Source: Escherichia coli
Lineage (GTDB): Bacteria > Pseudomonadota > Gammaproteobacteria > Enterobacterales > Enterobacteriaceae
Reading direction: 5' to 3' (one strand)
Assembly (NCBI RefSeq): GCF_003018115.1
Contig: NZ_CP027457.1
DNA: 64,000 nucleotides
Shown piece by piece: positions 16,601-19,600 of the stretch. How positions within the stretch are numbered: position 1 is the first letter of the stretch; each line of letters begins with the position of its first letter. Made by a program: the position numbers.

Positions 16601-19600
16601 GCAGGGGGCCTGGCTGGATAACTGGTTGCAGTACGCGTGGTTTAGCAATGATGTTTCTGAACATGAAGATGGCGTGGATCATTACCATTCGTCGGGGATT
16701 ATCGCCTCGCTGGAAGCGGGGTATCAGTGGTTACCGGGGCGTGGTGTGGTGATTGAACCGCAGGCGCAGGTGATTTATCAGGGCGTGCAGCAGGATGATT
16801 TTACCGCCGCTAACCGTGCGCGCGTGTCACAATCGCAGGGTGATGATATTCAGACGCGGCTGGGTTTACACAGCGAATGGCGTACCGCTGTTCATGTCAT
16901 ACCAACATTAGATCTGAATTATTATCACGATCCCCATTCGACGGAAATTGAAGAGGATGGCAGCACTATCAGTGACGATGCGGTGAAGCAACGGGGTGAA
17001 ATAAAAGTGGGAGTCACGGGCAATATCAGTCAGCGAGTGTCCCTGCGCGGCAGCGTGGCGTGGCAGAAAGGGAGTGATGATTTTGCCCAGACGGCAGGGT
17101 TTTTGTCGATGACGGTGAAATGGTAATCGCTGTCTGACCATCACTATTGCCGGATGCGGCGTAAACGCCTTATCTGGCCTACGGAGAGCATTTGTAGGCC
17201 TGATAAGACGCGGCAAGCGTCGCATCAGGCATTGGCGCGGTTGCCGGATGAATCCAAACAACAACCTCACTTATTCTGCGTGTGCAACATATAGTTCACA
17301 TCCACACCGGGGCCGAGTTTAAAAGTATTAGTGATCGGGTTGTAATGTAGCCCGGTTATATGTCGCTCTTTAAGGCTTGTCTGATCTACCCAGCCAAGCA
17401 GCTCTGCCGGTTTAATAAACTTCTTCACATCATGCGTGCCTTTGGGCACCATGCGCAAAATATATTCCGCGCCAACCACCGCCATCAGCCATGACTTGCC
17501 GTTGCGGTTAAGCGTCGAGAAAAAGACATCGCCGCCTGGTTTCACCAGTTGCGCACAGGCTCTGACCACTGACTGCGGATCGGGTACGTGCTCCAGCATC
17601 TCCATGCAGGTCACCACATCATACTGCCCGGCATGTTTTGCCGCGTGCTCTTCCACGGTTTCCTGCACGTAATCCACCTGAATGCCGCTTTCCAGTGCGT
17701 GCAGTTTTGCCACCTGCAATGGCTCAAATCCCATATCCAGACCGGTCACCGTCGCGCCTTCGCGCGCCATACTCTCGGCCAGAATGCCGCCGCCACAACC
17801 GACATCGAGCACCTTTTTGCCAAATAAACCGCCAGCACGCTCGGCAATATAGCCCAGACGCAGCGGGTTAATGCGGTGCAGCGGTTTGAACTCACCTTCC
17901 AGATCCCACCAGCGGGAGGCGACGGCTTCAAATTTAGCGATCTCTTCGTGGTCTACGTTATGGTTTACCGGCGATTTTTCGGCATTCATTGGCACTTCTA
18001 CTCCGTAATTGGCAAGACAAACGAGTATATCAGGCATTGGATGTGAATAAAGCGTATAGGTTTACCTCAAACTGCGCGGCTGTGTTATAATTTGCGACCT
18101 TTGAATCCGGGATACAGTAGAGGGATAGCGGTTAGATGAGCGACCTTGCGAGAGAAATTACACCGGTCAACATTGAGGAAGAGCTGAAGAGCTCCTATCT
18201 GGATTATGCGATGTCGGTCATTGTTGGCCGTGCGCTGCCAGATGTCCGAGATGGCCTGAAGCCGGTACACCGTCGCGTACTTTACGCCATGAACGTACTA
18301 GGCAATGACTGGAACAAAGCCTATAAAAAATCTGCCCGTGTCGTTGGTGACGTAATCGGTAAATACCATCCCCATGGTGACTCGGCGGTTTATGACACGA
18401 TCGTCCGTATGGCGCAGCCATTCTCGCTGCGTTACATGCTGGTAGACGGTCAGGGTAACTTCGGTTCCATCGACGGCGACTCTGCGGCGGCAATGCGTTA
18501 TACGGAAATCCGTCTGGCGAAAATTGCCCATGAACTGATGGCCGATCTCGAAAAAGAGACGGTCGATTTCGTTGATAACTATGACGGCACGGAAAAAATT
18601 CCCGACGTCATGCCAACCAAAATTCCTAACCTGCTGGTGAACGGTTCTTCCGGTATCGCCGTAGGTATGGCAACCAACATCCCGCCGCACAACCTGACGG
18701 AAGTCATCAACGGTTGTCTGGCGTATATCGATGATGAAGACATCAGCATTGAAGGGCTGATGGAACACATCCCGGGGCCGGACTTCCCGACGGCGGCAAT
18801 CATCAACGGTCGTCGCGGTATCGAAGAAGCTTACCGTACCGGTCGCGGCAAGGTATATATCCGCGCCCGTGCTGAAGTGGAAGTTGACGCCAAAACCGGG
18901 CGTGAAACCATTATCGTCCACGAAATTCCGTATCAGGTGAACAAAGCGCGCCTGATCGAGAAAATTGCGGAACTGGTAAAAGAAAAACGCGTGGAAGGCA
19001 TCAGCGCGCTGCGTGACGAGTCTGACAAAGACGGGATGCGCATCGTGATCGAAGTGAAACGCGATGCGGTCGGTGAAGTGGTGCTCAACAACCTCTACTC
19101 CCAGACCCAGTTGCAGGTTTCTTTCGGTATCAACATGGTGGCATTGCACCATGGTCAGCCGAAGATCATGAACCTGAAAGACATCATCGCGGCGTTTGTC
19201 CGTCACCGCCGTGAAGTGGTGACCCGTCGTACTATTTTCGAACTGCGTAAAGCTCGCGATCGTGCTCATATCCTTGAAGCATTAGCCGTGGCGCTGGCGA
19301 ACATCGACCCGATCATCGAACTGATCCGTCATGCGCCGACGCCTGCAGAAGCGAAAACTGCGCTGGTGGCTAATCCGTGGCAGCTGGGCAACGTTGCCGC
19401 GATGCTCGAACGTGCTGGCGACGATGCTGCGCGTCCGGAATGGCTGGAGCCAGAGTTCGGCGTGCGTGATGGTCTGTACTACCTGACCGAACAGCAAGCT
19501 CAGGCGATTCTGGATCTGCGTTTGCAGAAACTGACCGGCCTTGAGCACGAAAAACTGCTCGACGAATACAAAGAGCTGCTGGATCAGATCGCGGAACTGT

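Follow-up and report, generated by a model that had tools for sequence, protein, structure and literature searches.

A wild-type gyrA quinolone-resistance-determining region in a 64-kb stretch of Escherichia coli DNA

Here we report that, in a stretch of 64,000 nucleotides of Escherichia coli DNA (hereafter the window, meaning the whole stretch analysed), the segment carrying the two principal quinolone-resistance codons almost certainly represents codons 81–88 of an intact, functional, wild-type E. coli gyrA gene, and that the encoded gyrase is predicted to be fully sensitive to quinolones. The GyrA protein of the window is identical to that of K-12 MG1655 (b2231, NP_416734.1) at 875 of 875 residues, and therefore every reported gyrA resistance substitution, whether in this protein's quinolone-resistance-determining region (QRDR) or elsewhere, is absent. 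A sequence-only reading of the same DNA had proposed TCG (Ser) at codon 83 and GAC (Asp) at codon 87, and both assignments were confirmed, in frame with the ATG at position 18136 (Table 1). The interval that it gave, 18376–18399, does cover codons 81–88 (GDSAVYDT), but the motif quoted with it (residues 78–88, 18367–18399) begins upstream and its HPH lies outside the interval, a trivial offset. The further proposal, that none of the common fluoroquinolone-resistance substitutions occurs here, also holds and was an understatement, as this GyrA is without any substitution relative to the drug-susceptible K-12 protein.

Table 1. Positions of the gyrA gene and its parts in the window.
Feature	Position	Strand	Description
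ubiG–gyrA intergenic region	17990..18135	+	gyrA promoter and 5′ leader; 146/146 bp identical to K-12
gyrA promoter (putative)	18083-18091	+	extended −10 TGTTATAAT; assigned via K-12 identity
gyrA CDS	18136..20763	+	DNA gyrase subunit A; ATG start, 875 codons and stop; from the ORF list and translation
QRDR	18334..18453	+	codons 67–106; amino acids identical to K-12
Codon 83	18382..18384	+	TCG, Ser, wild type (TTG would give S83L)
Codon 87	18394..18396	+	GAC, Asp, wild type (AAC would give D87N)
Catalytic Tyr122	18499..18501	+	codon TAT, directly preceded by Arg121
GyrA box	19813..19833	+	QRRGGKG, residues 560–566, in the C-terminal DNA-wrapping (β-pinwheel) domain
Terminator-like hairpin	20783..20810	+	T-rich tail; just 3′ of the gyrA stop codon

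The QRDR of GyrA comprises residues 67–106 (PMC9953508). Over this region the window gene differs from that of K-12 at only three positions, all silent, at codons 85 (GTT in place of GTC), 91 (CGT in place of CGC) and 100 (TAC in place of TAT). Comparison of the whole protein with K-12 revealed no resistance substitution at Ser83 (L, W or A), at Asp87 (N, G or Y) or at any other QRDR residue, and A51, A67, G81, D82, A84, Q106, A119 and A196 are each wild type. In E. coli gyrase, the C3/C4 keto-acid of a quinolone chelates a Mg2+ ion, the water ligands of which hydrogen bond with Ser83 and Asp87 (PMC9917921). Ciprofloxacin-induced cleavage by the S83L and D87N enzymes reaches about half of the wild-type level even at 500 µM, and the S83L D87N double-mutant gyrase is essentially insensitive to the drug (PMC9917921). 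Fluoroquinolones stack into the cleaved DNA and thereby trap the cleaved-DNA complex, and the contact between drug and GyrA is made through the chelated Mg2+, with two of its water ligands reaching Ser83 and Asp87 (the water–metal ion bridge). Both anchors of this bridge are wild type here, and the encoded gyrase should thus be fully quinolone-sensitive. We infer this sensitivity because the published biochemistry was done on a wild-type enzyme to which this protein is identical.

A sensitive gyrase need not mean a susceptible organism. The quinolone phenotype of a strain also depends on gyrB, parC and parE, on marR/acrR efflux regulation, and on plasmid-borne genes of the qnr, aac(6′)-Ib-cr, qepA and oqxAB type. 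The strain could thus be non-susceptible to fluoroquinolones despite its wild-type gyrA, through qnr, aac(6′)-Ib-cr, qepA, up-regulated efflux or changes in gyrB, parC or parE. Such mechanisms act independently of gyrA, and the relevant loci all lie outside the 64-kb window, within which we found none of parC, parE and gyrB, no qnr and no further acquired quinolone-resistance gene, and saw no pentapeptide-repeat ORF. Nevertheless, we consider this outcome improbable: quinolone mechanisms that leave gyrA unchanged have only low-level effects, the window follows K-12 collinearly, the DNA that it has in addition passes no resistance-family cut-off, and clinically relevant resistance of E. coli typically needs gyrase mutations first (PMC9917921).

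The collinearity runs in reverse orientation with K-12 2355644..2286273, and the gene order is glpBA, glpTQ, inaA, yfaE-nrdBA, yfaL, ubiG, gyrA, yfaA/T/S/Q/P, rcsC and rcsBD, followed by micF, ompC, ftp, ada-alkB, yojI, mqo, eco, nap, ccm, narP and yejO. The yfaL–ubiG–gyrA–yfaA context is that of K-12 and the neighbouring genes are all intact, as are about 45 genes of the window, with protein identities to K-12 of mostly 97–100%. The 64 kb contain no IS elements, and only three pieces of DNA have no counterpart in K-12: a pair of LysR and MFS genes, a junction of about 200 bp at the ato position and a 1.5-kb prophage end. The first of these (5758–7991) encodes a LysR-family regulator, intact and 292 aa long (− strand), and, divergent from it, an uncharacterised MFS transporter (an ORF of 416 aa; relatives have it annotated at 396 aa), at a position where K-12 retains only a yfaH pseudogene remnant. 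The regulator passes no resistance-family cut-off; the transporter stays below every NCBIfam cut-off (best score, 110 bits, with a cut-off of 374) and has no match among quinolone-efflux models. At the second (30190–30388), about 200 bp separate yfaP from rcsC, and the entire atoSC-atoDAEB operon, which in K-12 occupies about 7.4 kb (2319952–2327366), is missing. At the third (62503–64000), collinearity with K-12 stops inside the 3′ end of the tRNA-Pro gene proL, of which a remnant of only about 15 nt, one G short, is left; ARAGORN found no tRNA anywhere in the window. From 62518 onwards the DNA matches a prophage sequence whose annotation is that of a ClpP-like prohead protease/major capsid fusion, and the segment resembles the distal att end that a prophage or island integrated at proL would have.

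The window has intact copies of two genes that K-12 carries as pseudogenes: yfaS, of the α-2-macroglobulin family (23139–27758, a 1,539-aa ORF), and the autotransporter gene yejO (59811–62402, an 863-aa ORF without the IS5 insertion). OmpC (ompC, 37573–38682) is 89% identical to its K-12 counterpart, with indels, whereas its neighbours are 97–100% identical; this divergence is typical porin surface-loop diversity. The MicF sRNA gene (37146–37239, − strand) is intact (Rfam, 116.8 bits). Between eco and mqo (45266–45592) lies a tandem 113-bp repeat of the REP/BIME type in 2.9 copies, compared with about six in K-12, and an 87-bp repeat in 1.9 copies lies between nrdA and nrdB (10217–10384); both match Rfam naRNA4.

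At the nucleotide level, the window gyrA differs from that of K-12 at 30 of 2,628 positions (98.86% identity), and all 30 differences are synonymous, being third-position or Leu first-position changes; the three in the QRDR are among them. The two alleles are alike in codons 83 and 87, in their ubiG, yfaL and yfaA neighbours and in the 146-bp upstream region. Of the single substitutions that this gene could undergo, only 24% are synonymous, and the probability that 30 of 30 would be synonymous under errors or neutral drift is about 3e-19. The pattern is real purifying selection, not error. These differences bear on the explanation that the wild-type codons are an artefact, in which a sequencing, assembly or consensus error would mask a resistant allele. 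Such masking needs two independent errors, each recreating the reference codon exactly, in a gene with this signature of purifying selection; the surrounding 30-mer is, moreover, shared with 2,013 other genomes, and the roughly 45 neighbouring genes are free of frameshifts. We regard an artefact as barely conceivable.

The identification of the gene as gyrA is firm. The 875-aa protein scored 1,310 bits with TIGR01063, the NCBIfam gyrA equivalog model (cut-off, 877), and 1,259 bits with a second gyrA equivalog model, NF004043 (cut-off, 902), and it matches solved A chains of E. coli gyrase in the Protein Data Bank, such as 6rks_A, over residues 1–875. Tyr122, the DNA-cleaving tyrosine of E. coli gyrase, is present, as are R462, the acidic C-terminal tail and the GyrA box, which sets gyrase apart from topoisomerase IV. 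In DNA gyrase (A2B2), GyrA is the subunit that breaks and rejoins DNA, and the window protein would be expected to supercoil DNA together with GyrB, given its 100% identity to the K-12 protein, the biochemistry and structure of which have been characterised. The remaining candidate, that the motif comes from a type IIA paralogue such as parC (topoisomerase IV subunit A) and the 83/87 numbering is void, draws on the very similar motif around Ser80 and Glu84 of ParC and on the significant E-values that parC family models reach on the window protein, and it is ruled out by the family cut-offs (both gyrA models exceeded, the parC models below theirs, with the Gram-negative model parC_Gneg at 580 bits against 629), the complete identity to K-12 GyrA, the GyrA box and the synteny with the K-12 gyrA locus, where ubiG and yfaA are likewise the neighbours.

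The regulatory flanks of this wild-type gyrA are also conserved. A simple σ70 scan missed the gyrA promoter because its −35 element is weak, and we infer its position solely from identity to K-12. Downstream of gyrA, 147 of 148 bp are identical to K-12.

The exact gyrA allele is rare: it occurs in no complete E. coli genome, and the best match is 99.5% identical. The lack of an exact match raised the idea of a Shigella origin, which is unlikely given that the 64 kb are free of IS elements. At the gene level, the closest gyrA sequences, at this nucleotide identity, are those of SW07099, M8, O113:H21 and others, whereas over 24 kb the closest are O169:H41-type strains (F9792, F8111 and F6326; 99.1%), which are nearly identical to the window outside 15000–23000. 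In the comparison with F9792, 214 differences fall in 15000–23000, compared with 0–4 per kb at 5000–15000 and none at 23000–29000. The divergent segment (about 8 kb) spans the 3′ half of yfaL, ubiG, gyrA, yfaA and yfaT, and this clustering points to homologous recombination around gyrA in either the lineage of the window or that of F9792. The QRDR of F9792 is also wild type, and its GyrA differs from that of the window by D678E and A828V. The patch is not linked to resistance, since a wild-type QRDR is found in the strain and in its relatives alike.

Nucleotides 669–1065 of gyrA (window 18804–19200) include nine synonymous sites that are unique relative to K-12, SW07099 and F9792. A 426-nt stretch containing these nine silent variants has at most 98.6% identity to any complete E. 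coli genome (5,425 genomes), and exact 60-, 32- and 62-mers from it had no match in GTDB species-representative genomes or JGI metagenome contigs. The probability that all nine changes would be synonymous under random change is about 3e-6, and the pattern argues for real variation, probably from an unsampled donor, rather than error. A tentative explanation, which we think somewhat unlikely, is that homologous recombination brought in the gyrA segment from a lineage of Escherichia that is unsampled. If it were true, such import could conceivably replace or restore a quinolone-target allele. The recombinant, rare silent-variant allele is the only mildly unusual feature of this gyrA, and is without demonstrated functional meaning.

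To place the wild-type codons in the species, we compared exact 30-mers over codons 81–88 (18375–18404) with 5,426 complete E. coli genomes, in a search where any internal mismatch loses the megablast seed. The wild-type 30-mer was found in 2,013 genomes in the form of the window (GTT at codon 85) and in 639 in the K-12 form (GTC), and these two forms together account for 48.9% of the genomes. The S83L D87N 30-mer was found in 1,371 genomes in the GTT form and in 331 in the GTC form (1,702 of 5,426, 31.4%). The other roughly 20% of genomes may carry single mutations, other substitutions or other silent variants. The resistant S83L and S83L D87N alleles, as in pandemic multidrug-resistant lineages, have the same gene and the same 30-mer save for the two resistance positions, at which the window has TCG rather than TTG (codon 83) and GAC rather than AAC (codon 87). 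Wild type is the commonest gyrA state among complete E. coli genomes, and its presence here is unsurprising.

Taken as a genotype-to-phenotype annotation, a wild-type gyrA in this strain is routine and of a kind already known, and it adds nothing new on gyrase, on quinolone action or on the evolution of resistance. For the organism itself, its wild-type gyrA would make high-level, target-mediated fluoroquinolone resistance very unlikely.
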